A stretch of DNA of 16,978 nt from the UHGV virus genome UHGV-0207004; one strand, written 5' to 3'. Of this stretch, positions 766 through 16,978 are shown piece by piece; within the stretch, counting starts at the first letter, position 1, and the number at the start of each line of letters is the position of its first letter. Both the position numbers and the translations under genes were made by a program. The notes beneath the pieces are model-generated. The model had not been told where the DNA came from. It was given only the letters and a program-made list of their open reading frames with translations, and did no database searches. Source of the stretch: a virus.

Positions 766-771
766 CAAAAA

Positions 772-800
772 GGGGGCCATTACGGCCCCCGAATTATTTT
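772..800. terminator. bidirectional rho-independent terminator shared by the convergent genes
   Basis: GGGGGCC (772-778) / GGCCCCC (784-790) perfect 7-bp stem with 5-nt loop; A-run 766-771 gives a T-run for the minus-strand transcript, and ATTATTTT 793-800 follows on the plus strand. Confidence 0.6.
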
Positions 801-1010: not shown

Positions 1011-1221
1011 ATTTCACAACCTCTTTCGTGATGGTCCGGTATTCCACATCGCGGGCTTGTTCGGCCTGCACTGCCCCCTCGACAACCTTAGTTTGCTGCC
1101 GTTGGGCTTTCGCTTGCGCTTCCTGCGCCGCGCTCGCCACAACGCCAGCGCGGTATGAATCGCCCAGCCAGAAGCCAACCGCCAGGCCGATAACCAATCC
1201 AATCGCTGCATACTTAATCAC
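913..1221 (-). CDS. i-spanin-like (Rz-type) protein, ~102 aa
   Basis: Track ORF starts at TTG 1251 with no RBS; GTG 1221-1219 is preceded by a GGGGG Shine-Dalgarno at 8 nt and is the likelier start. N-terminal TM helix (IKYAAIGLVIGLAVGFWLG) followed by a charged Ala/Gln/Glu-rich helical periplasmic domain; embedded lipoprotein gene in another frame. Confidence 0.45.
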   Translation of the reverse strand: MIKYAAIGLVIGLAVGFWLGDSYRAGVVASAAQEAQAKAQRQQTKVVEGAVQAEQARDVEYRTITKEVVKYVTRPDRTNCSFDDERVRIKQRAIDAANRVGL

Positions 1222-3821: not shown

Positions 3822-3831
3822 GTTCGTTTCC

Positions 3832-5217
3832 TTAGTAGAAGTCTACAGTTGGAACAACGGCGATTGGACGAATCACTGGGAACAGGTGCGCAATTGGATA
3901 GCCCGCGGCATCGTTCATGTGGTCCACCCCAGCGGTTTTATCCGGCTCGCCTTTCTTCAGGTCGTAAACCTGCTGTTCCAGGCATTTCGCTAGTGTAGGG
4001 CATTTATCCAGGTTGACAAAATACTGGCGCACGCCCTTAGCGTTGCACATCATCGTATTCATCGCGATCAATCTGTCTTTCACCGGTGGGTTGACGCTGT
4101 CGTATTCCACCTCGAAGCCCGCGTCTTCCAGTTGCGCGATATCCGACGACGATGCGTTTACGGTCTTACGAGACTTGCCACTGCTGTCCGGGTAAACGAC
4201 AACACGACCGGCAGCGCAATGATCGGGGTAGCGCTCCTCGATCGCCTCAATCATAGCCGGGGTATCAAACAAGTCCACAAATTCATCCACTGCGTGAATC
4301 TCGTCGCGGAACTCCTTATTCTCGGTAGTGCGCTGCCGTCTGACGTACACAACCGCCGCCATTTTCGTGACGTTAAAGTCCATTCCGATAATCAGCGTGT
4401 CATCCGGCTGCACTTCCTCGGTGCTGGCGTTCTCCTCACGGTTAAACATCTTGTAGACTGCGCCAGACGTGAGGTTTACAAACAAGCCGTTAAGATATGC
4501 GTCAATCAGGTTTGCAGGGTACTGGCTTCGCAGCGTGTCGATAAAGTCTGCCGGTAAGTGGTGGTTGTCGGTGGTCTTCGCCCGGATCAACCGTTTTTGG
4601 TTATCCTTCTCCACTTCGAAAATCTGATACATTGCCCGGAAGCCTTCCGGCGTGGACACGATGACAAACTGGCGCACCAGGCCCGCACGCAGACGACCGA
4701 GCAATTTGTGATACGCCGCCATTGCAACGTCTTGCTTCGTGGTGTCGAACTCATCGGCAACAATCCACGCGGCGTTAACACCGATAAGACGCGTGTAGTT
4801 CTCCATTGACTCGCAGATTACGCGGGTCCATTTGCCTTTCACCAGCACGCTATAGATCTTGTCCTGCTTGTTGAACTTCCACCGGAAGCCTGCCTCGTCG
4901 AAAGCCTTCTCCAGCTCCGGGTACATGATTTTCACCAGGAGTGGGATAGTCGGCTCGGTCACAATGCCGTCATGACCTGGGTTCAGTGTCAGAAGCTGGA
5001 TGACCTTACGCGCCGCGACCCATGACTTGCCGCCGCCGAAGCCGGAACACAGGCCGAGGATTTTGGTCTTTGTGTCGCGCAGTAGTTCTACCTGGTGCGG
5101 AAGGCAATCAGGTTGATACAGGCGGACGGCCTGGGCAACGCGCGTTGGGCGCGGTGGTCGGTTGCGCTTTGCAATCGCGCGTTCAAGTGCGCGGTTTTCT
5201 GCCGCATAGTTACGCAT
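3832..5217 (-). CDS. terminase large subunit
   Basis: 461 aa; ATG 5217-5215 overlapping the TerS stop (TAATG); Walker A-like GLCSGFGGGKS, Walker B-like WIVADEFD, C-terminal nuclease-like region (IIGMDFN...); position upstream of portal. Confidence 0.8.
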   Translation of the reverse strand: MRNYAAENRALERAIAKRNRPPRPTRVAQAVRLYQPDCLPHQVELLRDTKTKILGLCSGFGGGKSWVAARKVIQLLTLNPGHDGIVTEPTIPLLVKIMYPELEKAFDEAGFRWKFNKQDKIYSVLVKGKWTRVICESMENYTRLIGVNAAWIVADEFDTTKQDVAMAAYHKLLGRLRAGLVRQFVIVSTPEGFRAMYQIFEVEKDNQKRLIRAKTTDNHHLPADFIDTLRSQYPANLIDAYLNGLFVNLTSGAVYKMFNREENASTEEVQPDDTLIIGMDFNVTKMAAVVYVRRQRTTENKEFRDEIHAVDEFVDLFDTPAMIEAIEERYPDHCAAGRVVVYPDSSGKSRKTVNASSSDIAQLEDAGFEVEYDSVNPPVKDRLIAMNTMMCNAKGVRQYFVNLDKCPTLAKCLEQQVYDLKKGEPDKTAGVDHMNDAAGYPIAHLFPVIRPIAVVPTVDFY

Positions 5218-5768
5218 TACTCACCCTGGCCTTTGCCGATAGGTTCGACAACAACGTCGCCGTTATCATCTTCGTCATCATCCAGCGGAGCATCGTCGCG
5301 GACGCCGTGATTGGCTTTAAGCAGGAACGCAGCGAAGCCCGCCGCGATGGTGATGCCGCCCGCTTCCATCAGGAAAGTTTTCTGCAGCTCCATTGCGTCA
5401 GCCATCGCCTCGGCGAACTCCTCATGTGCGCGCGCCCAGCGGTACAGGCAGGCAATGCCTACACCAATATCCGCAGCAAAGCGACCGAGAGTCGGCATCT
5501 TATGGCGGGGGATGACTTGCGCAGCGCCCTTGTCGGAGTAGTTGATCTGCCAGGCTACGGCATCGGCAAAATAGCGGCGAAGCTGGTCGCAATACACAGT
5601 GCGGTAGTCGGTCGGGCGTCCACATTTGCCGCCTTTACGACGCTTGCCGTATTCGATCTCAGGTCCAAGATTGGTATGTTCGGTTTGCTCGCCTGGTTTA
5701 CGGCGCGGGGTGACTGCCACTCGACCGTCCAGTTTGGCGCGACGGCCCTTAACTCTGATTTCTGCCAT
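5217..5768 (-). CDS. terminase small subunit (183 aa)
   Basis: Track ORF (start 5867) trimmed to ATG 5768-5766, which has an AAGGG SD; basic N-terminus, HTH-like segment (TLGRFAADIGVGIACLYRWARAHEEF), acidic C-terminal tail; stop overlaps the TerL start. Confidence 0.55.
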   Translation of the reverse strand: MAEIRVKGRRAKLDGRVAVTPRRKPGEQTEHTNLGPEIEYGKRRKGGKCGRPTDYRTVYCDQLRRYFADAVAWQINYSDKGAAQVIPRHKMPTLGRFAADIGVGIACLYRWARAHEEFAEAMADAMELQKTFLMEAGGITIAAGFAAFLLKANHGVRDDAPLDDDEDDNGDVVVEPIGKGQGE

Positions 5769-5838
5769 GATATAAGCCCTTTTATGCATATGCGCCGACC
5801 ATCGGCAACATAGGAGACGGCCCTGCCATCTAAGGTGG

Positions 5839-5867
5839 ATTATAACAGGCACAAAAAAGCCCACCAA
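5839..5867 (-). promoter_or_regulatory. candidate sigma70-type promoter for the packaging operon (extended -10)
   Basis: Minus-strand reading: TTGGTG (5867-5862), 17-bp spacer, TGT-TATAAT (-10 at 5844-5839); overlaps the preceding terminator hairpin. Confidence 0.3.
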
Positions 5868-5878
5868 ATCGGCGGGCT
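5851..5878 (-). terminator. rho-independent terminator ending the phosphoesterase module
   Basis: On the minus strand: AGCCCGCC / GGTGGGCT stem (one G-U pair), 5-nt loop, followed by TTTTTTG (complement of 5851-5857); immediately downstream of the stop at 5886. Confidence 0.5.
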
Positions 5879-5885
5879 GGGAGGC

Positions 5886-6098
5886 TTAAACGGCGCGACC
5901 GTAGTATCGGGTTAACATGCTTTCAACTTCGCTTATGGCACCCTCTGTGTAGCGTATTTGAGATAGTATCTCGATCCGCTCACTGATAGACATGCCTATT
6001 GCCGCTGCCGTTCGTTCGAATCGGCGCAAGCCTTCTAGTTGTTTGCGTAGCTCTTTCAGGCGGGTGGCCTGCGTGCTCATGAATACTTGTCTAATCAT
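5886..6098 (-). CDS. hypothetical 70-aa helical protein, translationally coupled to the phosphoesterase gene
   Basis: ATG 6098-6096 overlaps the upstream TGA (ATGA); predicted helical, charged; followed by a terminator. Confidence 0.5.
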   Translation of the reverse strand: MIRQVFMSTQATRLKELRKQLEGLRRFERTAAAIGMSISERIEILSQIRYTEGAISEVESMLTRYYGRAV

Positions 6099-7237
6099 CT
6101 CAACATCTCCGGGCTAATGGTTAGGCGCGCCACTTCGCCGTAGTTGGCGCTATAGGTGATGACGTTAGCACTGCGTCCGGACATCCAACCGCCGCGGCTT
6201 GCGTATGCGTCTTTCGCGGCGAGCGTCCGGTGCTGCTCAACAATCATGTTACGGGATTCTACAATCTTCTGGTGGTGCAAGTGACCAACATGCGCGTAAC
6301 TGTACTCGCTCTCGCCAAATGCTTTCCTGAACTTAGAAATCATTACCGACTCGATGGCGTCAAAGCGTGCTTTGTGACCGTGGTGGAAAAACAGCGTGGT
6401 CTTACCGTGCTGCACCATCTTGTATACGTCCGGTGACGTGTCAACATCGACGCGCGGCTCGTTCTCGTACAGGGTGTTGAACATCTCCGCCAGCCAAATC
6501 ATACCAGACTCGTCATGATTGCCCTGGACGATTAGCAGTTTTACTTTGTGGTGCTTTCGCAGCGCCAGGTCTACTACGTTGCGCACCATGCGAATCATGT
6601 AGCGGACCAACTTCTGGTATCGGGTATCCGCGTCCAGGATATGACCACTGGCTGGAGTGACTGCGTCAAGGCTGTCAAAGTGCGCCATATCGCCGAGGAT
6701 ATTGATGACGGCAGTTCCTGCGTCTGGTGCGCGGGCGAAGGCTTCGACAAACCAGCGGTAAAACAGATCTTCGGCGATTGCCATATCCCAGTCCTCGCCA
6801 GTCTCCTCGCCCCATGCCAGCATTCCCAAGTGGAAGTCTGACACTGTGTACAGGTTGAGTAGGTCAAGTGCCTGGATCGGGACGGGCGGGGCGCTAACTG
6901 GTGCTGCCGGTGTGATTTCGCTGTTCATACCCTCGACAACAGCGAGCATTGCTTCGAGTTGGCGCTCCTTGTCCTGCTCGGTGATAACCCATGACATGAC
7001 CTCTTCGCCATTGCCACGCACCAGGGCGGATACACGCTTGACGCCGAATCCATCGGCAACGCGCTTACGGATCACAGCATCGTTGCCGTGCCCAATGCCT
7101 TTCTTCGACAGCCTGGCTTTGCGCATATAGACATTTCGAAGAGCAATGCCATATTTCTTCGCAATCTCTTTCGATGTAGTGCCAGCTTGCAATTCAGCGA
7201 TCAATTGCTCGTCGGTGATTTTAGTTTGCGGATGCAT
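6095..7237 (-). CDS. N-terminal HTH domain fused to a calcineurin-like metallophosphoesterase (380 aa)
   Basis: ATG 7237-7235. N-terminal HTH-like segment (TSKEIAKKYGIALRNVYMRKARL). Metallophosphoesterase motif set seen in the translation: SDFHLG (D-x-H), ILGDMAHFD (GD), QGNHDE (GNHD/E), HHGH, GHLHH (GH-x-H). Confidence 0.75.
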   Translation of the reverse strand: MHPQTKITDEQLIAELQAGTTSKEIAKKYGIALRNVYMRKARLSKKGIGHGNDAVIRKRVADGFGVKRVSALVRGNGEEVMSWVITEQDKERQLEAMLAVVEGMNSEITPAAPVSAPPVPIQALDLLNLYTVSDFHLGMLAWGEETGEDWDMAIAEDLFYRWFVEAFARAPDAGTAVINILGDMAHFDSLDAVTPASGHILDADTRYQKLVRYMIRMVRNVVDLALRKHHKVKLLIVQGNHDESGMIWLAEMFNTLYENEPRVDVDTSPDVYKMVQHGKTTLFFHHGHKARFDAIESVMISKFRKAFGESEYSYAHVGHLHHQKIVESRNMIVEQHRTLAAKDAYASRGGWMSGRSANVITYSANYGEVARLTISPEMLR

Positions 7238-7286
7238 ATTAATTTAATTCCTGATTGAGAGGACCTAGGACAATATACCACGGTCG

Positions 7287-7367
7287 CTATAGTAATTCGC
7301 AAATAACCATACCGACGAATGCGGCGGCGGACCAGATCGCTAATACCCAAATATCATTGCGTGCCAT
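7287..7367 (-). CDS. putative 26-aa hydrophobic micro-protein (MARNDIWVLAIWSAAAFVGMVICELL)
   Basis: ATG 7367-7365 preceded by GGAAGGAG at ~9 nt; single predicted TM helix; sits between the TTGGTTGCA promoter region and the phosphoesterase gene; below the ORF-track size cut-off, so hand-translated. Confidence 0.25.
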   Translation of the reverse strand: MARNDIWVLAIWSAAAFVGMVICELL

Positions 7368-7390
7368 AGTGTGTTACTCCTTCCCGTTGA

Positions 7391-7428
7391 TTGGTTGCAG
7401 TATGGCCTCTATGTTGGTTGCAAGTCAA
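7391..7428 (-). promoter_or_regulatory. promoter/operator region with two TTGGTTGCA 9-mers
   Basis: Perfect TTGGTTGCA at 7391-7399 and 7414-7422; on the minus strand TTGACT (-35, complement of 7423-7428) and a weak CATACT -10 at 18-bp spacing; directly after a terminator and before the micro-ORF and phosphoesterase gene. Confidence 0.4.
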
Positions 7429-7430
7429 GC

Positions 7431-7457
7431 AATAAAAAGCCCGGATAATTCCGGGCT
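7431..7457 (-). terminator. rho-independent terminator ending the lysis unit
   Basis: AGCCCGGA (7438-7445) / TCCGGGCT (7450-7457) 8-bp stem, 4-nt loop; on the minus strand followed by TTTTATT (complement of 7431-7437); 7 nt after the stop at 7464. Confidence 0.6.
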
Positions 7458-7463
7458 TCATGT

Positions 7464-7634
7464 TTACGCCTCCGGTTCTGCCGGTGGTTCCGGTGCCGCT
7501 GGTTCTGGCAGCTTCGCATCAAAAACACCAGCATGACTGATAGTGTCGGCGATAATGGCGCGTGCGCCAGGGTCTTCGGTTTTAGCCAGCGCGGCGAGCG
7601 CGTCGGCGTTATGATCAAGAATGCTTTTTAACAT
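7464..7634 (-). CDS. small protein with Pro-Glu-rich C-terminal tail (56 aa)
   Basis: Track ORF trimmed to ATG 7634-7632, preceded by GAGGAG at 7 nt; sequence MLKSILDHNADALAALAKTEDPGARAIIADTISHAGVFDAKLPEPAAPEPPAEPEA; no TM segment or lipobox, so not a spanin. Confidence 0.5.
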   Translation of the reverse strand: MLKSILDHNADALAALAKTEDPGARAIIADTISHAGVFDAKLPEPAAPEPPAEPEA

Positions 7635-7650
7635 ACTGTGTCTCCTCGTA

Positions 7651-8142
7651 TTACACTGCGTTACGTCCGATTTTCTCGGCAACGTCCCACTGCTTACCAT
7701 CGAATAGTGCCTGCCGACCGATTGCACGGCGGACAAGCCCCTTGAGCACTACCCCACCCTGCTTGCGGAATTGCGGCAGTGTAGCACGTACCTTCGCCCA
7801 GTCACCCAGGCGGACCGCATCATCGAAGTCACCGGCAATGTTGTCCGGCGTGATCGGGCCAGGACCGGTATTGATAACCAGATCCACCAGCGCGTCGAAT
7901 TGCGCCTGATTAATGCTCGGGTGTGCGTACTTGTTCACACAACTTTCGGCATACTCCACATCTCGCTTGAGTAGCTCCAGCGCTTCCGCACGGGTAATGC
8001 TCCGCGGCGGATTTGTGCCGGTGTGTCCATAGCCCCAGGTGTACAGGCCGCGGGCCTGCTCTTTCTTAGTCGCGAAATACGGCACTGGGCTGAATTGCTC
8101 CCATGCTGCCGTGAATCTTAGACCGTTGTCACTGAATCGCAT
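7651..8142 (-). CDS. endolysin, GH24 (T4/P22-lysozyme-like) muramidase
   Basis: 163 aa; ATG 8142-8140 with GGGG SD; from memory of P22 gp19-type lysozymes the translation shares SxNG...GxGHTG...NQxQFDAL...FNxG-type blocks; position after holin-like genes. Confidence 0.8.
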   Translation of the reverse strand: MRFSDNGLRFTAAWEQFSPVPYFATKKEQARGLYTWGYGHTGTNPPRSITRAEALELLKRDVEYAESCVNKYAHPSINQAQFDALVDLVINTGPGPITPDNIAGDFDDAVRLGDWAKVRATLPQFRKQGGVVLKGLVRRAIGRQALFDGKQWDVAEKIGRNAV

Positions 8143-8374
8143 GTTTTACCCCATTCAAAACAGCATTACGCAGTGTGCGCAATGCAAACAGCCAGATTAA
8201 CGCGGTCCAGGTGGCGTCAGATACGTCTCCCGTTTGCAACAGACCGACAATACAGGTCATTGCCGTTAGCAGATACAACACCCGACCGAAGAAGCCATCC
8301 TGAACGGATGGCGCGTACACGTTAAACAGGGACGATGCCCCGATAATCACAAACAACAGGACGGTGATAATCAT
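8129..8374 (-). CDS. holin/antiholin-like small membrane protein (81 aa)
   Basis: Track ORF (171 aa) trimmed to ATG 8374-8372, which overlaps the upstream TGA (ATGA) and has a GGGGGG SD; three hydrophobic segments; 3-prime end overlaps the endolysin start. Confidence 0.5.
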   Translation of the reverse strand: MIITVLLFVIIGASSLFNVYAPSVQDGFFGRVLYLLTAMTCIVGLLQTGDVSDATWTALIWLFALRTLRNAVLNGVKHAIQ

Positions 8375-8661
8375 TTTGCGCCCCCCGGAAGGCGGAACGA
8401 CGCAATCGTCTCCCTGATCCGGGCGGCGATTGGCATCCAGAAGATGGCTGTTACGAAGCCCAATCCGGCGACAGTTCGCTCGCCAGATAGGCCAGCCCAC
8501 TCGGCAATCGCTGGCGCACCGAAAATGGCACACAAGAAGCCGACCACGATGTATAACACGAAGTTTAATGGCCCTTTCGTGGCCTCGCCATGAATGCGAG
8601 CGCCAACGAATCCGCCTGCAAGGCACGCTAGGGCGAATAACCATTCGTTCAGCTTTTCCAT
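8371..8661 (-). CDS. holin-like membrane protein (96 aa, three predicted TM segments)
   Basis: ATG 8661-8659; hydrophobic segments WLFALACLAGGFVGARI, FVLYIVVGFLCAIFGAPAIA, GLGFVTAIFWMPIAA; charged C-terminus; first gene of the holin-holin-endolysin block. Confidence 0.55.
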   Translation of the reverse strand: MEKLNEWLFALACLAGGFVGARIHGEATKGPLNFVLYIVVGFLCAIFGAPAIAEWAGLSGERTVAGLGFVTAIFWMPIAARIRETIASFRLPGGAK

Positions 8662-8695
8662 AAAAAAGTCCCAGTAAGTTTTAGCTCACTGGGAC
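8662..8695 (-). terminator. hairpin plus T6 immediately abutting the holin start codon (tR-prime-like terminator or translational control element)
   Basis: GTCCCAGT (8668-8675) / ACTGGGAC (8688-8695) perfect 8-bp stem, 12-nt loop; on the minus strand followed by TTTTTT (complement of 8662-8667) and then directly ATG 8661. Confidence 0.5.
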
Positions 8696-8713
8696 TATAT
8701 CACGCTTGCATAG

Positions 8714-9001
8714 TTAATCGAAAATGGACCACTTACCGACGCCTTTCCATTCCCACCCTTCCGATCGGACGGCCTCGAACATACGGCCCCCGATCATATC
8801 CCGATACCACAGCCACCACATGCGCAGCTTGGTTGGGTGTTCGGTAATGCCGCGGCGCTTGTATATCTGGAACGTCATCCGGGTAATGCTGGCAGCTTCC
8901 ACGGCAGGCCATACCAGGAATACCCAAATAACTAACAACACTGCCGCGATAAGGCATAGTCCGCAGGCCAGCCCAAACCAATATATCATTTCGTGTAACA
9001 T
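8714..9001 (-). CDS. small membrane protein (95 aa), function unknown
   Basis: ATG 9001-8999 with AAGGGG SD at 8 nt; N-terminal TM helix, Trp-rich C-terminal half; caveat: two other frames are also open here, so coding status is uncertain. Confidence 0.4.
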   Translation of the reverse strand: MLHEMIYWFGLACGLCLIAAVLLVIWVFLVWPAVEAASITRMTFQIYKRRGITEHPTKLRMWWLWYRDMIGGRMFEAVRSEGWEWKGVGKWSIFD

Positions 9002-9122
9002 CGTATTGCCCCTTCTGGTTGTCCGATGTGGCGCGCCCAGGCACGCGCCACGAAGTAATTGCGGAACACTCGCCCGCCTATCTCAAAGCGGTTGTGCATG
9101 AGTATATCGCGGATGGTCGCAC

Positions 9123-9695
9123 TCATTTCAGAATCACCGAGCGCGGGTCGATGACGGTCATGTTGCCGTCCGGTTCGACACGGATGAATCCAACGCCATA
9201 CTCTTTAGCGTGGCGCTGTGCATTCGTCACGGCGTCAAAGCGATTGATGATTTCACGCGTTGCCTGGCGGATCGGCTCCATCACTTTGCTCGCGTCGTAG
9301 GCTGCATAGGCGGTCTGTGACTTGCGGAACTCAACGCGCTCATGTGGCTGGCGGATGCGCAGGCAGTATTTACGCCCCACTCGCTCGTAGTTGACCAGCC
9401 CGAAGTAAGCCACGCTCTTAACCATGTTGCCGGTACCGCCCTCCTTGCGGGTCTGCATACGAATGCAATAAAAACCAACATTCTCCACAATCCACAGCTG
9501 CCCGTCGCGAATATCCCGCAGCACATCGCCGCGCTCAATATCGTGGGTGAGTACGTCGAAGTTTTCCGACAGCTTGTCTTTCTTCGCCCACCACACCCGA
9601 CTACCTGCCGCGTTTTGCAAGCGGACGTAGGAATCCAGGGTCTGGATCGGCTTCAGGATGCATCCATCCCATTTACGGCGGAATAGTAATTTCAT
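9123..9695 (-). CDS. hypothetical protein (190 aa)
   Basis: ATG 9695-9693 overlapping the upstream TGA (ATGA); no motif recognised; last gene before the late leader and holin genes. Confidence 0.55.
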   Translation of the reverse strand: MKLLFRRKWDGCILKPIQTLDSYVRLQNAAGSRVWWAKKDKLSENFDVLTHDIERGDVLRDIRDGQLWIVENVGFYCIRMQTRKEGGTGNMVKSVAYFGLVNYERVGRKYCLRIRQPHERVEFRKSQTAYAAYDASKVMEPIRQATREIINRFDAVTNAQRHAKEYGVGFIRVEPDGNMTVIDPRSVILK

Positions 9696-9961
9696 TTGCT
9701 CAGTCTCCAGTGTTTGCCTGCCCGCTCAATGGCAGGCTTTCGGCGTAATGTAATACGGATCCCCATTGGTTGCAAGGAAGTCCGCACCCTGAAATCATGT
9801 TGTGCTGCGAACTGGTGCAGGTAGCGAGTCTGCGTAAGTGGCTTCGCATCATCGCGATAGCTCCAGTACACAGAATCGCCCTCAATCGCATTCTGCGCCC
9901 ATATTCGTATGCAATGCAGGGGAATGCCCCATGAAAGCTGTTTAGCTCGCCTCCGGCTCAT
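9692..9961 (-). CDS. hypothetical basic protein (89 aa)
   Basis: ATG 9961-9959 with AAGGGG SD; Arg/Trp-rich; translationally coupled to the downstream gene; contains an internal TTGGTTGCA at 9766-9774. Confidence 0.45.
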   Translation of the reverse strand: MSRRRAKQLSWGIPLHCIRIWAQNAIEGDSVYWSYRDDAKPLTQTRYLHQFAAQHDFRVRTSLQPMGIRITLRRKPAIERAGKHWRLSK

Positions 9962-9970
9962 TTTGGCCCC

Positions 9971-10276
9971 TTATTTCGCAAGCTGGGCGAATAGTTCGCG
10001 CTGGGCTTTAATCCGGGCGACGTTTGTCACTGCCGTCTCCCCGATCCCGAAGCGATAAGCCAGGCGCTCACGGGAGAATGCCATCGCATATTCGCAGATT
10101 GCCACGCGCAGCGGCTCCAGTTCGTCCAGGCTGGCAAACATATCGTCGAACGCGTTCATGATCGCCTGCTGGGTCAGGATGACTACCTCGCGCGCTTCGT
10201 CTGCGTTGCCGTTTAGTGCCTTCGCTTCGTCCAGCTTTGCCACGGCCAGGGTGTAATTCCAGATTAGTGCTTTCAT
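9971..10276 (-). CDS. hypothetical protein with C-terminal HTH-like segment (101 aa); candidate small regulator
   Basis: ATG 10276-10274 overlapping the upstream TGA; C-terminal RLAYRFGIGETAVTNVARIKAQRE resembles a helix-turn-helix. Confidence 0.5.
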   Translation of the reverse strand: MKALIWNYTLAVAKLDEAKALNGNADEAREVVILTQQAIMNAFDDMFASLDELEPLRVAICEYAMAFSRERLAYRFGIGETAVTNVARIKAQRELFAQLAK

Positions 10277-10470
10277 CGTTCAGTCCTCTTCGTGATGGTT
10301 ACGCTATCCAGGAATTGCAGCAAGGCCTCTTGCGCCTTTACACGCAATCCGGCGTAGTGGCGCGATTTCTTAATGTCGCCGACCATGTACGCTGCGCGTG
10401 CTTGCAAATCAGCTTTGTTCTCGGCCTCAATCAGTTCCAGCAGTTCGTCTACCAGGTCTTCGTGGTCCAT
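10273..10470 (-). CDS. hypothetical acidic helical protein (65 aa)
   Basis: ATG 10470-10468 with GAGGA SD at ~10 nt; first gene downstream of the promoter and repeat region. Confidence 0.5.
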   Translation of the reverse strand: MDHEDLVDELLELIEAENKADLQARAAYMVGDIKKSRHYAGLRVKAQEALLQFLDSVTITKRTER

Positions 10471-10485
10471 TGTTCAATCCTCATG

Positions 10486-10531
10486 TTGGTGTGCAACCAA
10501 TATATCAGTGTGCCCGGCCGGATGCAACCAA
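10486..10531 (-). promoter_or_regulatory. sigma70-like promoter overlapped by two TTGGTTGCA sites
   Basis: Minus-strand reading: -35 TTGCAT (complement of 10522-10527), 17-bp spacer, -10 TATATT (complement of 10499-10504); 9-mer copies at 10523-10531 and 10492-10500 (complement); the 21-mer TATATTGGTTGCACACCAACA is shared with 16579-16599. Confidence 0.45.
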
Positions 10532-10680
10532 TATTAATCACGCGCATGAAAAAGTTGATCGCTATCTGCTGCAACTGCAAACTGCATTTTTCACTCTCCA
10601 TTCTGCAACTCGCATTGGTTGCCGAGTTCATCGACGACCGCAATTTGCATCATGTTGCCGTGGATTATGCAATCCTGGAT

Positions 10681-11000
10681 TTTATGCAGTCTCAGACGAG
10701 GGGGGTGCCAGACCCCCCGTCTAGTCTGAAAGACTGGGGTGCTGTCCCGCTGTCCCGATCGGCTAAAACCCGCGGCAGCACTGGCGGGGACGGGGTGCTG
10801 TCCCGCTTTGTCCCGCCTCAATTTTGTCCCGCTTTTGTCCCGTTTGTTTTATGCATGAAAACTGAATAGGTATGCACTTTTCAGAGGGGTGCCAGATCGG
10901 GACGTCCCGCCTGTCCCGCTTTTAGTTTATGCAATAAAAGTAAATAGGTATGCAGTTTTTGAGGGGCGGGACAAAACGGGACGTCCCGCTTGTCCCGCTT
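10681..11000. repeat. ORF-free iteron array: three imperfect ~75-bp tandem modules carrying GTCCCGC heptamers (~10 direct, 3-4 inverted copies)
   Basis: GTCCCG(C) at 10744, 10752, 10800, 10810, 10826, 10837, 10904, 10913, 10983, 10992 (pairs 8-11 bp apart); inverted CGGGAC at 10898, 10967, 10977; modules start TTTATGCA at 10681, 10849, 10926 and share GAGGGG(TGCCAGA) and AATAGGTATGCA blocks; no ORF of 60 aa or more on either strand. Confidence 0.7.
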
Positions 11001-11002
11001 CA

Positions 11003-11679
11003 TTATGCGGGGTTTTGTTGCGCCATTTCATCGAGCGCGATTCGTTCCATTAGCTTGATATCTTTAAACGCGCGCTGCTCGTTTTCGATACCGTGCATCT
11101 TAAATAACCATTCCAGCACGCCATAGTCGATGCCGTATGCGCCACCGAATCCGGTGCGCCATTGCGTAGAGCAATCTGTGAAGACTGCGACTACCTTCGC
11201 GTTGTCGGGCCATAGCGCAACAGGCGGGCAAACGTCTTCAGGTGCCGCGCCCCATAAACTCGCGGCTAAGTCCTCTGATGGTGGCGGCGGACCGTAAAAT
11301 CGCCTCGCCGCCTCAATTAGTTTTTTTCACGCAGTCCCATCAGTTCGAGATAGTACGAGGTGTGGAACACGCCAAACGCGCGCGGATAGTTTACCACCAG
11401 GCGGCGAACGTTCTCCGCGTTAAATTCGTCCGGCAGGTTCCAGCCTTCAGCGACGTGCATGATGGCCTCAACCATAACGTTAAAGCCATCCGGGTCGTTG
11501 TCGTCATATTCTGATAGCTTGCGTTCCGTTTCCTGCATGGTCTGCGAAAATTCGTCAATCGGGCGGTGGCGGACGGTAAACGTCATCTTGCCTGGTTCGT
11601 TCTCACCAGGGCGCGGGATCTCAATCGGCAGCTTAAAGGTCGGCTTAGGGTCAAGTGTGAAGAGTGGTGCTTTAGCCAT
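11003..11679 (-). CDS. tail assembly chaperone GT fusion (predicted -1 programmed frameshift product)
   Basis: Slippery run GAAAAAAAC (complement of 11320-11328) at the last codons of G; the -1 frame has a stop 2 codons upstream of the slip site, then stays open for ~105 codons to TAA 11005-11003 with no plausible start codon or SD of its own. Confidence 0.45.
11317..11679 (-). CDS. tail assembly chaperone G (120 aa)
   Basis: Track ORF (TTG 11694) trimmed to ATG 11679-11677 with GGAG SD; small acidic protein directly downstream of the major tail protein gene and ending in a slippery A-run. Confidence 0.55.
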   Translation of the reverse strand: MAKAPLFTLDPKPTFKLPIEIPRPGENEPGKMTFTVRHRPIDEFSQTMQETERKLSEYDDNDPDGFNVMVEAIMHVAEGWNLPDEFNAENVRRLVVNYPRAFGVFHTSYYLELMGLREKN

Positions 11680-11692
11680 TGTAATATTCTCC

Positions 11693-11718
11693 AATAAAAA
11701 AGGGGCCGTGCTGGCCCC
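11693..11718 (-). terminator. rho-independent terminator after the major tail protein gene
   Basis: GGGGCC (11702-11707) / GGCCCC (11713-11718) stem, 5-nt loop; on the minus strand followed by TTTTTTATT (complement of 11693-11701). Confidence 0.6.
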
Positions 11719-11748
11719 ATATTATCACTCGCTATTTAAGCGACCAAA

Positions 11749-12474
11749 TCAGGCGAGTGCCTCGACCAGGTCCTTACGGTAGATGACCATATCAGACTGC
11801 ATGGTCAGAGTGGATTGTACCGTTTCCACGTTGTTTACTTCAGCGGACGGAATCTTCTGGAAAGATACCTTAGCCGGGTAAATACGAATTTCACCTTTGC
11901 CGCTTGCTGCCGCTGGGTTAGTGAACTTAATCACAGTGGTTTTCTGTGTGTCGTCCAGGTCTTCCAGGATTGGGCGGATCGGGTCTTCTTCGTCGTGGGT
12001 GAAGGTGTAAGTCTGGACCAACGGGTTTTTCGTGGTGTTCAGACTGATCGCGGTGTTCACCTGCAACGGCTGGAAGGTAGTCGTCTGCTGGTCACCACCA
12101 GAAACAGCAACGTTAGTGATAAACGGGAAGTCGATAAAGTTAGCCACCTTAACCACTTCGCCAGGTGTACCCGCTGCAAAAGCCCCCGCCGGATATTTGG
12201 TCACATCCGAGGTGTCGAAGCGCGCGAGCGTGACGTCGTTGGTAGCCACTTTACCCACGATGAACGCGCGGTTCTGCGCGCGGACCCACGGAGATTTAGT
12301 GAACATTACCACGTCGCCAACTTTCAGACCGTGAGACGCCGCGCAGGTGATTACGCAACCAGTGGTAAGGTTGGAGATCGACGCGGTGGCGTTGGAAGCT
12401 GCCGTAACAGCGATGCCGCTGCCCAGTACGGACCCAATCTGGACGCTGGACCCGTTAGGAAGTTGATAACCCAT
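11749..12474 (-). CDS. major tail (tube) protein
   Basis: 241 aa; ATG 12474-12472 with AGGAG SD; Gly/Ser/Thr/Val-rich beta-type composition; followed by a terminator and a chaperone gene with a frameshift, the canonical siphovirus arrangement. Confidence 0.55.
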   Translation of the reverse strand: MGYQLPNGSSVQIGSVLGSGIAVTAASNATASISNLTTGCVITCAASHGLKVGDVVMFTKSPWVRAQNRAFIVGKVATNDVTLARFDTSDVTKYPAGAFAAGTPGEVVKVANFIDFPFITNVAVSGGDQQTTTFQPLQVNTAISLNTTKNPLVQTYTFTHDEEDPIRPILEDLDDTQKTTVIKFTNPAAASGKGEIRIYPAKVSFQKIPSAEVNNVETVQSTLTMQSDMVIYRKDLVEALA

Positions 12475-12534
12475 AATGAAGCTCCTGTTTAGATATACGG
12501 ATTAATGATACAGCACGCGCAGAATTGCGCCAAA

Positions 12535-12957
12535 TCAGGCGCAACAGCTATACATGATTGATACCACGATGCGGGCGCGGTCAACATCCTCGACCACAGA
12601 ACTGGTATATGGCGCGTCCTGAAGCTGGAAAGCCGCGCCATCGATCTTGACGCCATGCCATTTGTCAGACGTCGCGATGGCGTCCGCCAGTTCGCTCGCG
12701 TACTGTGTGCCCGTGCCCGCAGGGAACACAACGGCAACCTGGTAAACGCCTGCATAGATCCGGCCTTTCTGCTGAAGGCCAGCAAACTGGGTCGGGGCCG
12801 GTAGCAGGTACGGCTCCAGGTAGACGCCATTACCGTTTGCGTGGTCGCCCTTCACGTTCTCCCAGTTAACCTGGATCGGACGCTGGTTAGTGCTCAGGCT
12901 AACCGCCAATTCTTCTACTACGCTGTTAAGCGCCTTGCGGATTAGAGTATTGCTCAT
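12535..12957 (-). CDS. head-tail joining / tail terminator-like protein (140 aa)
   Basis: ATG 12957-12955 overlapping the upstream stop; call is from position between head-tail connector genes and the major tail protein only. Confidence 0.4.
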   Translation of the reverse strand: MSNTLIRKALNSVVEELAVSLSTNQRPIQVNWENVKGDHANGNGVYLEPYLLPAPTQFAGLQQKGRIYAGVYQVAVVFPAGTGTQYASELADAIATSDKWHGVKIDGAAFQLQDAPYTSSVVEDVDRARIVVSIMYSCCA

Positions 12958-13550
12958 TATTTCACCTTAGAATTGATTTCTGCCGCCACAACGCGAACAA
13001 TCCCCGCTGGCGCTTGTTTACTCCAGCCATACTCCAGTCGCTGCGCATACGGCACATTATTAGTAAACCAGATCGATCCGTATTCGCCAGAATCGTAATG
13101 CGCCAGCACGTCACGCCCTGCGGCTAATGTTGCCGTTCCAGCCTTGTCCACTCTGTCGATAGCGCCGACAGCCGGACGGTCGAAAGTCACCTGCCAGTTT
13201 CCCCGGAAGCGTCCGCCGGTGTAATTCTTCGCGGCCCAGCCACGCTGGCGAAATGTGACGTTGCCGTCTTTAGTCTTAAACGAGACGAGCACACTTGCGT
13301 GTTTCTTCTGCCCGCGCTTCAGTTTGCCGCCATTCTTGCGGCGCTGTGCGGCGTTCACCTTGTTCGCGTGCTGGCGGGCCATCGCGAACGCCCTGTTAAT
13401 CTTCCACCGGCGGGGGTCGCCCACCGGGGAAATCTCAATCAGGCGTCCGAGTATTTGCATACCGGTCGCCCGCACCGCCTTGTCGTTATTCTCCTTCGTC
13501 TTTTCCACCCAGGTGGCGATGGTGGCGGCGAACGAGTAGACCTCAGCCAC
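12957..13550 (-). CDS. head-tail connector family protein (197 aa), possibly HK97 gp10-like
   Basis: GTG 13550-13548 with AAGGGG SD at ~5 nt; synteny between capsid and tail genes; family assignment is from recollection, not a search. Confidence 0.4.
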   Translation of the reverse strand: MAEVYSFAATIATWVEKTKENNDKAVRATGMQILGRLIEISPVGDPRRWKINRAFAMARQHANKVNAAQRRKNGGKLKRGQKKHASVLVSFKTKDGNVTFRQRGWAAKNYTGGRFRGNWQVTFDRPAVGAIDRVDKAGTATLAAGRDVLAHYDSGEYGSIWFTNNVPYAQRLEYGWSKQAPAGIVRVVAAEINSKVK

Positions 13551-13551
13551 A

Positions 13552-13905
13552 TTAGCCCCTTAGCTGTAATTGAAACAGCATGGTAGTTCCCGCCGGTTGC
13601 AGTGGATTTGGATTGATAACACGGTAGTCCGTGCTATTCAGGTTGACCAGATCGCCTACCTGCACTTGCTCCGATGCCTGGCATAAGAACTTAACGTCAC
13701 CGGCAATGATACGAGTCCCGTCGATCTCGCTGGGCTTGTACTCCTCGCGAAGACCGATGACATCAAACGACGTTGGCGGGATAACCACTTCTTCGCCGCC
13801 TACGCGGTCAACAGACCCCGGACGCGTCACCTTAACGGTCATGCCGTATTTTTTAATCAGCGGATTTACTTTCCGCTTCAAGCCTGCGTAGTTAAAGCCC
13901 GCCAT
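13552..13905 (-). CDS. head closure / head-tail adaptor-like protein (117 aa)
   Basis: Track start GTG 13914 abuts the SD; ATG 13905-13903 has GGAGGG at ~9 nt and is preferred; synteny. Confidence 0.45.
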   Translation of the reverse strand: MAGFNYAGLKRKVNPLIKKYGMTVKVTRPGSVDRVGGEEVVIPPTSFDVIGLREEYKPSEIDGTRIIAGDVKFLCQASEQVQVGDLVNLNSTDYRVINPNPLQPAGTTMLFQLQLRG

Positions 13906-13906
13906 T

Positions 13907-14002
13907 TTATTCACCCTCCGGCGCTGGTTCTGGTTCTGGTTCTGGTTCTGGTGGCTGTTTGGTATTTGCGGCGATAACAGCCGCGAGTAATGCAGGATTC
14001 AT
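13907..14002 (-). CDS. 31-aa mini-protein with (Pro-Glu)4 repeat (MNPALLAAVIAANTKQPPEPEPEPEPAPEGE)
   Basis: ATG 14002-14000 one nt after the upstream TAA, AGGGG SD at ~5 nt; stop TAA 13909-13907 one nt before the next ATG; fills an otherwise unexplained 97-nt gap; resembles the C-terminus of the 56-aa protein at 7464-7634. Confidence 0.3.
   Translation of the reverse strand: MNPALLAAVIAANTKQPPEPEPEPEPAPEGE
13925..13953. repeat. hexanucleotide tandem repeat (TGGTTC) x4 plus a partial copy
   Basis: TGGTTC at 13925, 13931, 13937, 13943, then TGGTG; encodes the PEPEPEPE stretch on the minus strand. Confidence 0.85.
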
Positions 14003-14003
14003 A

Positions 14004-14504
14004 TTAGCCCCTGTACACGTCAAAGTTACCGGCGGCGTTGCCGTCTGTGTTCACCCAGTAGCCCAGCAGGCCATCCCACCACGGGAAAGACACACCACTA
14101 CCAATCGACGCAGCGTCATACTCCATCGTGATCGGGCCTACCGTTTCGCGGATAGTCTCCTTTCCATCGCCGATCGGAGAAATATCAACATCGTCAGCCA
14201 CCAGCATTGCCAGCCGGTAAACGGCTTGTTCAACGGCAACGGGGATTGATGCGAAGTCTACAATCTGCCCAGCAGGTACTACTGCCAAATCTTCGGTAAG
14301 CGTGTTCAGTACCGGCTTACCGTCTGATGGGTAGTTGATGCGGGGCCATGCGTCAATTCCGGTCGGGTCCGCCGGTTCGCCGATCCAGGCGATGCCGTTG
14401 AGGAAATCATTAACTATGGTAAGGTGTCGCGTTGCATCGCCCTGCGTAATTTCAACGCCTCGCGCCGCGGCATAAACAACGAAGGTTTGCGGGTCGCCAT
14501 ACAT
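14004..14504 (-). CDS. head-tail connector / head completion candidate (166 aa)
   Basis: ATG 14504-14502 with AGGAG SD at 8 nt; first gene after the capsid terminator; synteny only. Confidence 0.45.
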   Translation of the reverse strand: MYGDPQTFVVYAAARGVEITQGDATRHLTIVNDFLNGIAWIGEPADPTGIDAWPRINYPSDGKPVLNTLTEDLAVVPAGQIVDFASIPVAVEQAVYRLAMLVADDVDISPIGDGKETIRETVGPITMEYDAASIGSGVSFPWWDGLLGYWVNTDGNAAGNFDVYRG

Positions 14505-14517
14505 TTTATTTGCTCCT

Positions 14518-14543
14518 ATAAAAAAGGCGGGCTTATGCCCGCC
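14518..14543 (-). terminator. rho-independent terminator after the major capsid gene
   Basis: GGCGGGC (14526-14532) / GCCCGCC (14537-14543) 7-bp stem, 4-nt loop; on the minus strand followed by TTTTTT (complement of 14520-14525). Confidence 0.6.
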
Positions 14544-14562
14544 CCTTTGGGATTTGCGCCGA

Positions 14563-15663
14563 TCAGGACGCTGTGGTCGCAGTCAGCGTAACCAGTACGC
14601 CAGCCGTTTCCTTGATGTTACGGGTCGGCACTTCCTGCGCGGCCTGGGTCTTACGACGGCCTTTAGTATCGCCATCACCCACCGCGCCAACATCCTGAAC
14701 GGTTGCCGGTGCGTTGTCTACTTGGCCCTGGTCCAGTTCCCAGTTTGCGGAAGTGGTAATATCGCTCAGTTTGAACGAGCGTACACCTTCGATCGGGGTG
14801 CGAGCGGACGCCTTCAGACGGTAGCCTTTAACAGCCACGTTGAAGTCGAACTCACCCTGCCACCAGCGTTCGATGTTCTCGTTACCGCCTTTTTCCTGCG
14901 CCAGCATATCAAGGCCGTTGGTGGTAACTGCAACCGCGCCAGGGACCAGACCCAGCATTTTACCCGCGCCCATAGCATCGGCAGCGGCATCGGAGATAAT
15001 GAAACGACGACCCAGGCCGTCACCCATTACCTGCAGATCGCCGATCGCAAATACCTGCTCGGCAGACGGGAGCGCCTGGTACGCAATGAAGTTTGCCCAG
15101 GTAACGCCGTCCATAAACCAGGATTTAATCAAAGACGCCTGATCGCCGAACTTAGAAGCCGCCAGCGGGAAGTCTGCCAGGGTCGGGAAGGTACGACCGC
15201 CAACACCGTCAACACGCGCCGGTTGGGTGTATGCTGCCGCTGGGTTGCTCTCGATCGCCGCTTTACTTGCGCCGATACCGGCCTTCAGGTAATGCAGCAT
15301 AATCGCTTGAGTAGCCTGTGCCGCAATCTCAGCCGCAACGCTGTTAACGTTGGTTTCGATCTTAGCCATCATAGCCTTAGTGATTGCCACCGGACCCACT
15401 TTCGCGGAGAGGTTGACCGAGTTGGTCAGCATACGCGCCAGCACTTTAGCGGTCGCCGGAGTACCGACAGGGGCATATGCGTTACGGTCAGTAACGAGGT
15501 TGGCGATCAAGCCTACGGACATTTTTTCTACAACGTCCTTCAGCACTTCACCTGTACCGAGAACAACAGCGCCGTTCGCGGCAGCGTTGAACACGTTCAG
15601 GTTGTCGGGGATCATTTGCGTAACCGCGGTAACGAGTTTACGCTGGAACACTGTTAAAGACAT
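14563..15663 (-). CDS. major capsid protein
   Basis: 366 aa; ATG 15663-15661 with AAGGA SD; immediately downstream of the scaffold gene and followed by a strong terminator; Ala/Gly/Val-rich; call from size, position and expression signals. Confidence 0.7.
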   Translation of the reverse strand: MSLTVFQRKLVTAVTQMIPDNLNVFNAAANGAVVLGTGEVLKDVVEKMSVGLIANLVTDRNAYAPVGTPATAKVLARMLTNSVNLSAKVGPVAITKAMMAKIETNVNSVAAEIAAQATQAIMLHYLKAGIGASKAAIESNPAAAYTQPARVDGVGGRTFPTLADFPLAASKFGDQASLIKSWFMDGVTWANFIAYQALPSAEQVFAIGDLQVMGDGLGRRFIISDAAADAMGAGKMLGLVPGAVAVTTNGLDMLAQEKGGNENIERWWQGEFDFNVAVKGYRLKASARTPIEGVRSFKLSDITTSANWELDQGQVDNAPATVQDVGAVGDGDTKGRRKTQAAQEVPTRNIKETAGVLVTLTATTAS

Positions 15664-15730
15664 ATCGAAATCCTTTGAGTTGTGAGCATTCGCCCAGTGA
15701 CGTTAATGTTACCTTAGATTTACGCGCTCG

Positions 15731-15756
15731 CAAAATCGCCCGCTTTCGCGGGCGAT
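15731..15756 (-). terminator. attenuator-like hairpin between scaffold and capsid genes
   Basis: ATCGCCCGC (15735-15743) / GCGGGCGAT (15748-15756) perfect 9-bp stem, 4-nt loop; on the minus strand followed by only TTTTG (complement of 15731-15734). Confidence 0.35.
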
Positions 15757-15760
15757 CTGC

Positions 15761-16465
15761 TTACTCGTCGTCGCCCATTTTAGCGATGATTTCACCGGCC
15801 TGTTTTGTCAGGTCTGTAATACCAAAGCTATGGCCCATCGAGATTTTCGGCTTCGCATCTTCAATAACCTGTGTCGGTTTGCTCGGAGCGCCACCTGCTG
15901 GCGTGCCTGCTAGTACGGATGCAAAATCGGCGTTACTACGGAACTCTTTTTCAAGCTCTTCCATAGTAAGGGCGGACGGTTTGCCATCCTTCAACACCCG
16001 CAATTTCAAGCTGCCGTCTTCGCCGTCTTCCAGCGCGAGTCGGTCCATTACGTGGCGTTGCATGATGCCCGCATTCTTACCGAACAGCTTCGACGCCAGG
16101 TCTTTGGCAGCGCTGCCGATGGTTAGATCGTGGATCTGCTTGCGGTAGGCTTCGATTTTACCCGATGTGTCTGCTTCGTGTTTTGCAAACTTATCCTTCC
16201 AGGATTTATCGATCGCTTCGAGGTCGCCATTTTTGCGCGCGGCGGCTTCCTCTTTCTCTTTCGCAAGGCGCTCGGCTTCGGCGCGGCGTTCGGCTTCTGC
16301 TTTCTTCTCGCTCACCAGCTTTGCGTTGTTGTCTTTCAGACCCTTGATTTCCGCCTGCACTTCGTCAGCGGTCATAAATGTTGACTTATACCCGTCGCCA
16401 TCGGCAACAAAAAGCGCCTTCATACCTTCTGGCAACGCGTCGTATTCTGCTTTGGTAAGTTTCAT
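15761..16465 (-). CDS. scaffolding protein (234 aa)
   Basis: Track ORF (start 16699) trimmed to ATG 16465-16463 with AGGGGGA SD; Lys/Glu/Ala-rich coiled-coil-like central region (KKAEAERRAEAERLAKEKEEAAARK); directly upstream of the capsid gene. Confidence 0.6.
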   Translation of the reverse strand: MKLTKAEYDALPEGMKALFVADGDGYKSTFMTADEVQAEIKGLKDNNAKLVSEKKAEAERRAEAERLAKEKEEAAARKNGDLEAIDKSWKDKFAKHEADTSGKIEAYRKQIHDLTIGSAAKDLASKLFGKNAGIMQRHVMDRLALEDGEDGSLKLRVLKDGKPSALTMEELEKEFRSNADFASVLAGTPAGGAPSKPTQVIEDAKPKISMGHSFGITDLTKQAGEIIAKMGDDE

Positions 16466-16555
16466 GCTATCCCCCTGGGATTGTGGCAGAGCGGGCCACC
16501 CGCTCGACTTCACGCCTCTAATATTATCAGCGATAAAAATAATCGCAAAATTCGC

Positions 16556-16599
16556 TTGCAATCCTGGTGTTGGTTGCATATATTGGTTGCACACCAACA
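16556..16599 (+). promoter_or_regulatory. plus-strand sigma70-like promoter overlapped by two TTGGTTGCA sites, in a divergent intergenic region
   Basis: -35 TTGCAA (16556-16561), 17-bp spacer, -10 TATATT (16579-16584); 9-mer copies at 16570-16578 and 16583-16591; the 21-mer 16579-16599 is the reverse complement of 10484-10504; a GAGCGGG/CCCGCTC hairpin at 16489-16505 lies in the scaffold gene leader. Confidence 0.45.
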
Positions 16600-16619: not shown

Positions 16620-16934
16620 ATGACTAACATGACCGTAGCAACTCCAGTAGACGTAGCAATGACCCGTTTCAATAAAGCTACCGTAGCTAAAACCTTCACC
16701 TTTCATGCTATGCGTAACGCCGAAGCGCTGAATCTGTGCCAGAGCATGAATGCTACTGAAGCAGCGAAGGCCGCAATCAATTCCGCATCCTTCGATAACC
16801 CGGCTTGCGGTCTGGTTCCGGCATCTTTCATCAAATCCCTGGTAGAAGCCTTTAACGATTTCATGTGCGTCGATGCCGTTGAAGCCGTATGCGCTCGCTT
16901 AACTTCCACCGGTGGCAACATCAAGTTTAACTAA
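16620..16934 (+). CDS. hypothetical protein (104 aa), divergent from the structural operon
   Basis: ATG 16620 with AAGGA SD at 7 nt (in-frame ATG 16605 lacks an SD); ends TAA 16932-16934; followed by a GGGGC-GAAA-GCCCC hairpin near the window edge. Confidence 0.5.
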   Translation: MTNMTVATPVDVAMTRFNKATVAKTFTFHAMRNAEALNLCQSMNATEAAKAAINSASFDNPACGLVPASFIKSLVEAFNDFMCVDAVEAVCARLTSTGGNIKFN

Positions 16935-16978
16935 ACTAAACCAAACGGGGCGAAAGCCCCAACCACGAGGACACAAAA

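Follow-up and report, generated by a model that had tools for sequence, protein, structure and literature searches.

The virus genome UHGV-0207004, a stretch of 16,978 nt referred to here as the window (all coordinates refer to it unless stated otherwise), carries on its minus strand a series of small genes that is predicted to form a six-gene operon, A to F, extending from position 10470 to position 8714 and bounded by a promoter and an intrinsic terminator. We modestly favor the view that the six products are non-structural accessory proteins with host or gene-expression targets, and that they are not part of core replication, morphogenesis, or lysis. The operon would represent one promoter-to-terminator unit of an early-type promoter class; its last three genes, D to F, are dispensable. 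The genes of the operon are already on record as conserved hypotheticals from more than 150 genomes, and Sodalis phage SO-1 has annotations for the repeats that flank them; what is new here is a member that carries the rare A gene, in itself a fairly ordinary finding.

Six coupled genes between a promoter and a terminator

An initial annotation, made from the sequence alone, had described four coupled genes of 65, 101, 89, and 190 amino acids (aa) behind an operator-controlled promoter. All four open reading frames (ORFs) were found exactly at the positions given there, on the minus strand, which had been left unstated, and the ATGA overlaps, the 9-nt spacer, and the good Shine-Dalgarno sites that it described were confirmed in the sequence. 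The coupled chain runs on, however, through E (46 aa) and F (95 aa), so the cassette comprises six genes instead of four (Table 1). ATGA overlaps link A to B, C to D, and D to E; B and C are separated by 9 nt, and E and F overlap by 16 nt. Each of the genes A to D is preceded by a Shine-Dalgarno sequence of the form GAGGA, AAGGGG, or GGAGA. Compared with phage KarlBarth (Bas17; 43,104 bp), which served as the reference for BLASTN comparison of the whole window, the ratio of nonsynonymous to synonymous divergence (dN/dS) was 0.30 for B, 0.18 for C, 0.19 for D, 0.09 for E, and 0.08 for F, indicating purifying selection. Because dN/dS lies between 0.08 and 0.30 for B to F, and because A is conserved over its full length, the genes are real; they are also translationally coupled.

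The promoter ahead of gene A consists of a -35 element, TTGCAT (10527-10522), a 17-nt spacer, and a -10 element, TATATT (10504-10499). Two direct copies of the 12-mer ATATTGGTTGCA, at 10534-10523 and 10503-10492, overlap the -35 element and the -10 element with the predicted +1, respectively, and the Shine-Dalgarno sequence of gene A, GAGGA, follows at 10482-10478. In an alignment of seven Dhillonviruses, the hexamers and the 12-mers were invariant and the sequence of the spacer was variable, with its length always 17 nt. This pattern of conservation is that expected of a working sigma-70 promoter and supports such an assignment. In line with the initial annotation, a conserved promoter with repeated operator-like 12-mers does lie ahead of the genes.

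The 9-mer ATTGGTTGC occurs 14 times in KarlBarth against an expectation of 0.54, an excess of about 26-fold. Most copies are intergenic, most have the orientation of the downstream genes, and they often stand as tandem copies 13-31 nt apart. The sites precede the Nmad5 gene (gene 7), genes 27, 34, and 39 in the modification/replication region, the helicase genes 51/52, and the cassette. ATTGGTTGC probably marks a phage-specific promoter or operator class. From the motif that it shares with the replication genes, and from the whole string of -10 element, leader, and Shine-Dalgarno sequence (TATATTGGTTGCACACCAACA..GAGGA) that it shares with the Nmad5 gene, we infer that the operon belongs to an early or middle promoter class. 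A promoter with the phage's own ATTGGTTGC(A) motif would place the operon in the early or middle gene class; its expression would then precede that of the genes for lysis and structure on the far side of the terminator, and its products would act on the host itself or on gene expression of the phage, in takeover, anti-defense, or regulation.

At the distal end of the operon, the terminator begins 18 nt past F (fold z = -5.7), and its U-run runs straight into the holin ATG at 8661, the distance between gene F and the holin gene being 52 nt. Across seven phages, Sodalis phage SO-1 among them, the 83-nt stretch comprising the terminator and the start of the holin gene shows 98% identity. No Rfam family was matched at the gathering score; a single sub-threshold hit, NsiR1, fell on the terminator hairpin. 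A candidate extended -10 element, TGaTATAGT (8702-8694), overlaps the 5' arm of this hairpin, and transcripts starting from it would be without the hairpin. Ahead of the holin ATG there appears to be a single purine-rich stretch, and it lies within the hairpin.

Table 1. Features of the operon, its surroundings, and the colinear pieces of the window
Feature	Coordinates	Strand	Basis or remarks
Operon promoter (predicted)	10492..10534	-	Sequence, repeat family, seven-phage alignment
Gene A, 65 aa, acidic, isoelectric point (pI) 5.3	10273..10470	-	ORF
Gene B, 101 aa, acidic, pI 5.1	9971..10276	-	ORF; phrog_9839, E 8e-54
Gene C, 89 aa, very basic, pI 11.3	9692..9961	-	ORF; phrog_12533, E 4.7e-56
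Gene D, 190 aa, basic, pI 9.7	9123..9695	-	ORF; phrog_10243, E 9e-93
Gene E, 46 aa, basic	8986..9126	-	ORF; phrog_13628, E 7e-36
Gene F, 95 aa, last in operon, hydrophobic N-terminal segment	8714..9001	-	ORF; phrog_2531, E 1e-36
Intrinsic terminator	8661..8702	-	Terminator scan; 12-bp stem 8696..8667, then U-run
Upstream repeat module	10687-10998	-	Repeat scan; point of closure of the false circle
Conserved hairpin in repeat module, ~50 nt	10736..10687	-	Fold -38 kcal/mol, z = -3.0
ATTGGTTGC sites in window	7390-7421, 9765-9773, 10492-10534, 10614-10622, 16570-16591
Colinear piece 1	1-5768 = KarlBarth 5768-1		BLASTN
Colinear piece 2	5769-10878 = KarlBarth 43104-38818		BLASTN
Colinear piece 3, after jump	10682-16599 = KarlBarth 11712-5783		BLASTN

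Core, near-core, and interchangeable genes

Searched by megablast, window positions 8000-12000 matched 159 phage records, essentially all of them Dhillonvirus, at 85-88% identity. Dhillonviruses are HK578/SO-1-like virulent siphophages of Escherichia coli. Judged by its sequence, the phage represented by the window is a virulent Dhillonvirus and not a lambdoid phage, and it has a polymerase and helicases of its own.

The initial annotation had proposed looking at presence and absence across syntenic relatives, and this comparison, made by tblastn against 50,697 phage records, separated the genes. B and C were each found in 157 records and D in 156, all Dhillonvirus-like and with every match annotated "hypothetical protein"; A was found in five, over residues 18-65 only. 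B, C, and D gave full-length matches to PHROGs 9839, 12533, and 10243, each profile being wholly covered, and these families, together with PHROGs 13628 and 2531, matched by E and F, are all of unknown function. The product of gene C is the most conserved protein of the cassette, with mostly 80-95% identity across its 157 records. When 1.84 billion representative proteins were searched exhaustively with D by HMMER, only 19 came up, each a close relative or a fragment. No natural deletion of B or C was seen among the genomes compared. On these data, B and C are core orphan genes restricted to the genus, with D, E, and F near-core.

Gene A is of a different kind. It has no PHROG and no Pfam match, and in a database of 5.8 billion proteins it was present at full length in four clusters, with 62-95% identity and conservative substitutions. 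The position that it occupies is empty in KarlBarth and L005. In L007, HK578, and SO-1, the slot holds a 59-aa gene (MKTEMV...) with relatives in 425 records from many phage genera, and elsewhere it holds a 57-aa gene (MKFPV...) found in 26 records, including Aeromonas and Klebsiella phages. A is thus one of at least three small genes that replace one another in a swap slot immediately after the promoter. Some phages have another small variable slot, between C and D. In many relatives, no stop codon separates the first-slot ORF from B, which shares its frame, and the two have been called as "fusions" of 145-159 aa (P0122-P0163, for example Maverick MAVERICK_033). In one homologue of A, P0257, the N-terminal motif is duplicated.

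The distal genes vary by loss. In the isolate Teewinot (41.8 kb; L013 1731-2079), D is reduced to a broken N-terminal piece, E is gone, and F is partly gone; in JL1 (L014 1658-2052), D is reduced to its C-terminal 83 residues; and in protein P0242 the N-domain of D has become fused naturally to the C terminus of F. Because D to F are missing or truncated in these three independent natural variants, they are dispensable, and plaques form without them. Dhillonvirus is outside the coverage of the essentiality screens by HIDEN-SEQ and transposon mutagenesis. The notion of a single uniform cassette accordingly gives way to one of mixed status, in which A is a rare swap-slot gene, B and C belong to the genus core, and D to F are near-core yet dispensable. 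Essentially all members of the genus have B, C, and D; it is a genus that is widely used in defense research (SECphi18, BASEL Bas14-18) and that includes phage-therapy isolates, and the first slot, as a swap site for mobile small genes, is a place to look for anti-defense genes.

Predicted folds and searches for function

None of the proteins A to F matched a known function in Pfam, NCBIfam, PADLOC, or PHROGs, in PDB searches by sequence or profile, or in fold searches, which covered B and D. In the PDB, neither the sequences nor the profiles of B, C, and D gave any significant match, and PADLOC (defense proteins) and the NCBI family models gave no match for the cassette proteins. These results agree with the earlier remark that no motif could be named in any of them, and the sensitive profile and structure-based searches that had been suggested as a check matched no core phage function.

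The initial annotation had also ascribed a helix-turn-helix (HTH)-like C terminus to the 101-aa protein B, and this did not hold up. The best Pfam scores were far below threshold, at E 0.05 and 13.7 bits against a cut-off of 27 for HTH_Tnp_4 and at E 0.17 and 12.3 bits against 32.7 for Cro. The AlphaFold (AF2) model of B (mean predicted local distance difference test score [pLDDT] 96.8) consists of four long helices, at residues 2-20, 25-44, 50-76, and 81-100 (19-27 residues each). Its best Foldseek match in the PDB had E 0.41 and a TM-score of 0.42, and there was no DNA-binding protein among the 50 matches listed. An HTH regulator was ruled out for B on these three grounds: the sub-threshold Pfam scores, the four-long-helix model, and the lack of DNA-binding structural neighbors. 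B is instead an acidic four-helix protein and likely a protein binder.

C, a small and very basic protein, is a candidate nucleic-acid binder. D is predicted to have an SH3-like beta-barrel N-domain (residues 1-115), followed by a variable linker and a helical C-terminal part modeled at low confidence. The N-domain has the five strands that define the small-barrel fold (SH3/Tudor/KOW-like), which suggests that the barrel domain of D is a candidate adaptor; no sequence signal was seen for an internal duplication of two D barrels. Compared with SH3/Tudor/KOW barrels such as the RNA-polymerase-binding domains of UvrD/PcrA, CarD, and Mfd and the KOW domain of NusG/Spt5, the D barrel shows 4-18% identity, and its scores are generic for a very common fold, being matched by those of ribosomal proteins, NdhS, FeoA, and eukaryotic SH3 domains. 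F appears to be membrane anchored, the anchor being read from its hydrophobic segment.

Possible roles of the operon

An accessory, regulatory, or anti-defense role, as suggested in the initial annotation, remains the best guess for the operon. Several points weigh against it. The supposed early timing would follow from promoter similarity only, the operon lies directly upstream of the lysis genes and on the same strand as these and all the structural genes, and a late-regulatory or lysis-related role is possible. B and C, which are in essentially every genome and for which no natural deletion was seen, could be essential. The published lysate proteome of phage EE09 lists structural proteins, lysin, terminase, and phosphoesterase (PMC10673088). 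In favor of a non-structural role, cassette products were not detected in the EE09 virion or lysate proteomics (PMC10673088), but this data set caught few non-structural proteins, so their absence there is weak evidence.

The position of the operon invites comparison with a late-gene switch, in which B or C (less likely D) would act on host RNA polymerase at the terminator and turn on the late unit, by the logic of lambda Q and with unrelated proteins. The layout mirrors that of lambda, with small genes, terminator, holin and endolysin, cos, and structural genes on one strand; the terminator and holin start, 98% conserved in the genus, leave no room for a separate downstream promoter; the ATTGGTTGC sites inside the structural block face leftward to the Nmad5 gene or lie upstream of gene 27, none being directed toward late genes; and C is very basic. 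Even so, we regard such a switch as unlikely, in that there is no similarity to Q or to any antiterminator family, nothing links B or C to DNA, RNA, or polymerase, and D, being deleted or truncated in viable phages, is no essential switch. There is only a slim chance that the B/C pair, possibly with the SH3/Tudor-like D, constitutes a new switch, unrelated to Q, that passes, or initiates within, a terminator hairpin that appears to hide the holin ribosome binding site; if true, it would time all of the late unit, which begins with the lysis genes and runs past cos to the genes for head and tail. Rather unlikely, too, is a lysis or envelope module, in which D, E, and F, or possibly the whole operon, would modulate holin timing or give superinfection exclusion. 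D to F adjoin two holins and the endolysin, F has a hydrophobic N terminus and is encoded only 52 nt ahead of the holin gene, E and F are under the strongest purifying selection (dN/dS 0.08-0.09), and natural deletions take out D, E, and F jointly, which is what a dispensable functional unit would show. Set against this are the strong terminator between F and the holin gene, the lack of similarity to holins, antiholins, spanins, and exclusion proteins, the annotation of spanins elsewhere in the genome, and the soluble, charged nature of A, B, C, and D.

Replication accessories, with B and C as origin-binding or helicase-loading factors, would fit the gene order of complete genomes (helicase-primase, repeat region B as a possible origin, cassette), the promoter class that the operon has in common with replication genes, and the universal conservation of an acidic B and a basic C as a pair. 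We nevertheless consider this decidedly improbable: no similarity to any replication protein was found, the same repeat module also lies between the tail chaperone and tape-measure genes, which is ill fitting for a simple origin, and the origin role of the repeats is itself putative. Finally, it is very improbable that some of the frames, especially A, are open leader frames that arose by chance and not genes. A is indeed short, lacks a PHROG, and is missing in most genomes; however, it is conserved at full length with 62-95% identity and conservative substitutions in four independent clusters, it has its own GAGGA and an ATGA junction with B, and dN/dS for B to F is 0.08-0.30. The accessory reading of the operon remains the one that we prefer.

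Comparison with known systems

The closest counterparts of the operon are the blocks of hypothetical genes in other Dhillonviruses (KarlBarth bas17_0054-0059, SO-1 gp49-gp53, and SSL-2009a gp55-58), which have the same genes, order, promoter, and terminator. The proteins of the KarlBarth block are 75-91% identical to those of the window. The window differs from KarlBarth and L007 in having the rare A gene and in being without a 44- to 50-aa gene between C and D.

The initial annotation had likened the region to the nin/Q-like region of lambdoid phages. The lambda nin/Q region with PR'-tR' likewise has small genes, a terminator, holin and endolysin, cos, and structural genes on one strand. Unlike lambda, the phage represented by the window is virulent, the terminator follows six genes and not a short leader, and D to F are dispensable. 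A terminator does precede the holin gene, but six genes separate it from the promoter, and no late promoter or Q-binding element was demonstrable in this arrangement. A Q-like antiterminator identified by homology was rejected, there being no match to Q families by sequence or fold. The lambdoid comparison was therefore abandoned: the phage is a virulent Dhillonvirus that encodes a polymerase and helicases for itself, and nothing in it resembles Q.

The class I genes of T7 and the pre-early genes of T5 form host-takeover operons of small, coupled, lineage-specific, interchangeable genes with strong host-type promoters. The cassette is like them in layout, with no sequence relationship, and early timing is in its case a prediction. 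Small accessory proteins of Dhillonvirus that are restricted to the genus and act at the interface between phage and host defense offer another parallel. Ksap1, the 74-aa trigger of KpAvs2, is encoded between methyltransferase and phosphatase genes, and the phage tolerates its deletion (PMC11564622); the same is true of anti-Tmn, which is ORF35 in phage SMS22 (PMC11846954). Judged by its ORF number, anti-Tmn should lie well upstream of the cassette locus. Identity of the cassette genes with Ksap1 or anti-Tmn was rejected on the basis of differing sizes and loci, and identity with the RAZR, Retron-Eco8, and Borvo triggers of SECphi18 was also rejected, these triggers being the portal, protein that binds single-stranded DNA (SSB), and polymerase.

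The window as an arc of a larger genome

Relative to KarlBarth, the window consists of three colinear pieces (Table 1), and about 27 kb, from the tape measure through the helicase, is absent from it at the repeat upstream of the cassette. In KarlBarth, these 27 kb encode the tape measure, tail tip, fibers, methyltransferases, DNA polymerase, SSB, and helicases. The second and third pieces overlap at window positions 10682-10878, where complete genomes hold two copies of the repeat module, and the end of the window joins its start, in that the GAGGA at 16968-16972 serves the ATG at position 1. Many cassette-bearing Logan contigs are 16-17 kb long. All three that were examined begin at the repeat, and for one of them the other end was traced to it as well: contig ERR14760860_25793 (16,918 nt) starts within the repeat hairpin and ends in the same repeat past the tail chaperone gene, and its ends, when joined, give exactly the junction seen in the window. 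In a 44-kb contig with an identical major tail protein, the repeat is followed by the tape-measure gene. Because the Logan contig ends lie in the repeat and the 44-kb contig continues into the tape measure, we conclude that the window represents an assembly arc of a Dhillonvirus genome of about 44 kb that was closed into a false circle, its junctions lying near 10687-10760 and at 16978/1. The alternative of a genuine mini-genome or satellite of 17 kb was rejected on the contig evidence and on the absence of tape measure, tail tip, fibers, and any replication gene. GenBank record OK272475 (phage JLBYU27, 16,547 bp), labeled "complete genome," has the same arc structure, and we conclude that it is likewise a falsely circular arc. 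Assemblies of Dhillonvirus thus break at the repeat upstream of the cassette into one arc of about 17 kb and another of about 27 kb, a process that can yield false "complete circular" genomes such as these two.

The repeat module itself contains arrays of GCGGGACA in paired boxes together with 79-bp tandem units (about 10743-10998) of the form TGCATACCTATT..TGCATAAA, and the palindrome CGGGACGTCCCG is also present. The stem of its conserved hairpin is nearly invariant, the loop is variable, and there is no U-run. Complete genomes hold the module twice, before the tape-measure gene and before the cassette; the two KarlBarth copies, at 11518-11712 and 38819-39014 of that genome, are 82% identical to each other (with its arrays, the first extends over 11395-11712), and the GenBank record of SO-1 already annotates both copies, as repeat "region A" and "region B." The order in complete genomes (KarlBarth, SO-1, rolling, and Maverick) is helicase-primase gene, repeat region B, and then cassette. 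Possible roles for the module include an origin, an RNA processing site, and a put-like element. The initial annotation had placed the cassette between an iteron region and the lysis genes. Its position before the lysis genes stands; its adjacency to the iterons is in part an assembly artifact, the repeat array in the window being mostly the tail-side copy (region A).

Other sites of the promoter class and neighboring genes

One antisense copy of the motif, ATTGGTTGCA, lies inside gene C, at 9765-9773 on the plus strand, and is kept in KarlBarth at 39731. Within the operon, synonymous divergence is lowest in gene C (dS 0.27). The antisense site and the low dS together hint at an overlapping constraint at the nucleotide level, perhaps an antisense promoter or operator.

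The Nmad5 gene (254 aa, PF18757; 1-765, plus strand) has a promoter and leader module identical in type to that of the cassette, and Nmad5 has been reported as the Tmn trigger. A 104-aa gene (phrog_24635; 16620-16935, plus strand) stands between the promoter and the Nmad5 gene; L005 also has a 104-aa gene at this position, and KarlBarth has none. The Nmad5 locus is accordingly a second variable first slot behind the same type of promoter. A calcineurin-like phosphoesterase of 380 aa (phrog_704) is encoded at 6095-7237 on the minus strand, and its residues 8-48 gave weak HTH-type Pfam hits (GerE, HTH_28, and HTH_24; E 0.02-0.2), which makes this segment a candidate DNA-binding domain near the cassette.

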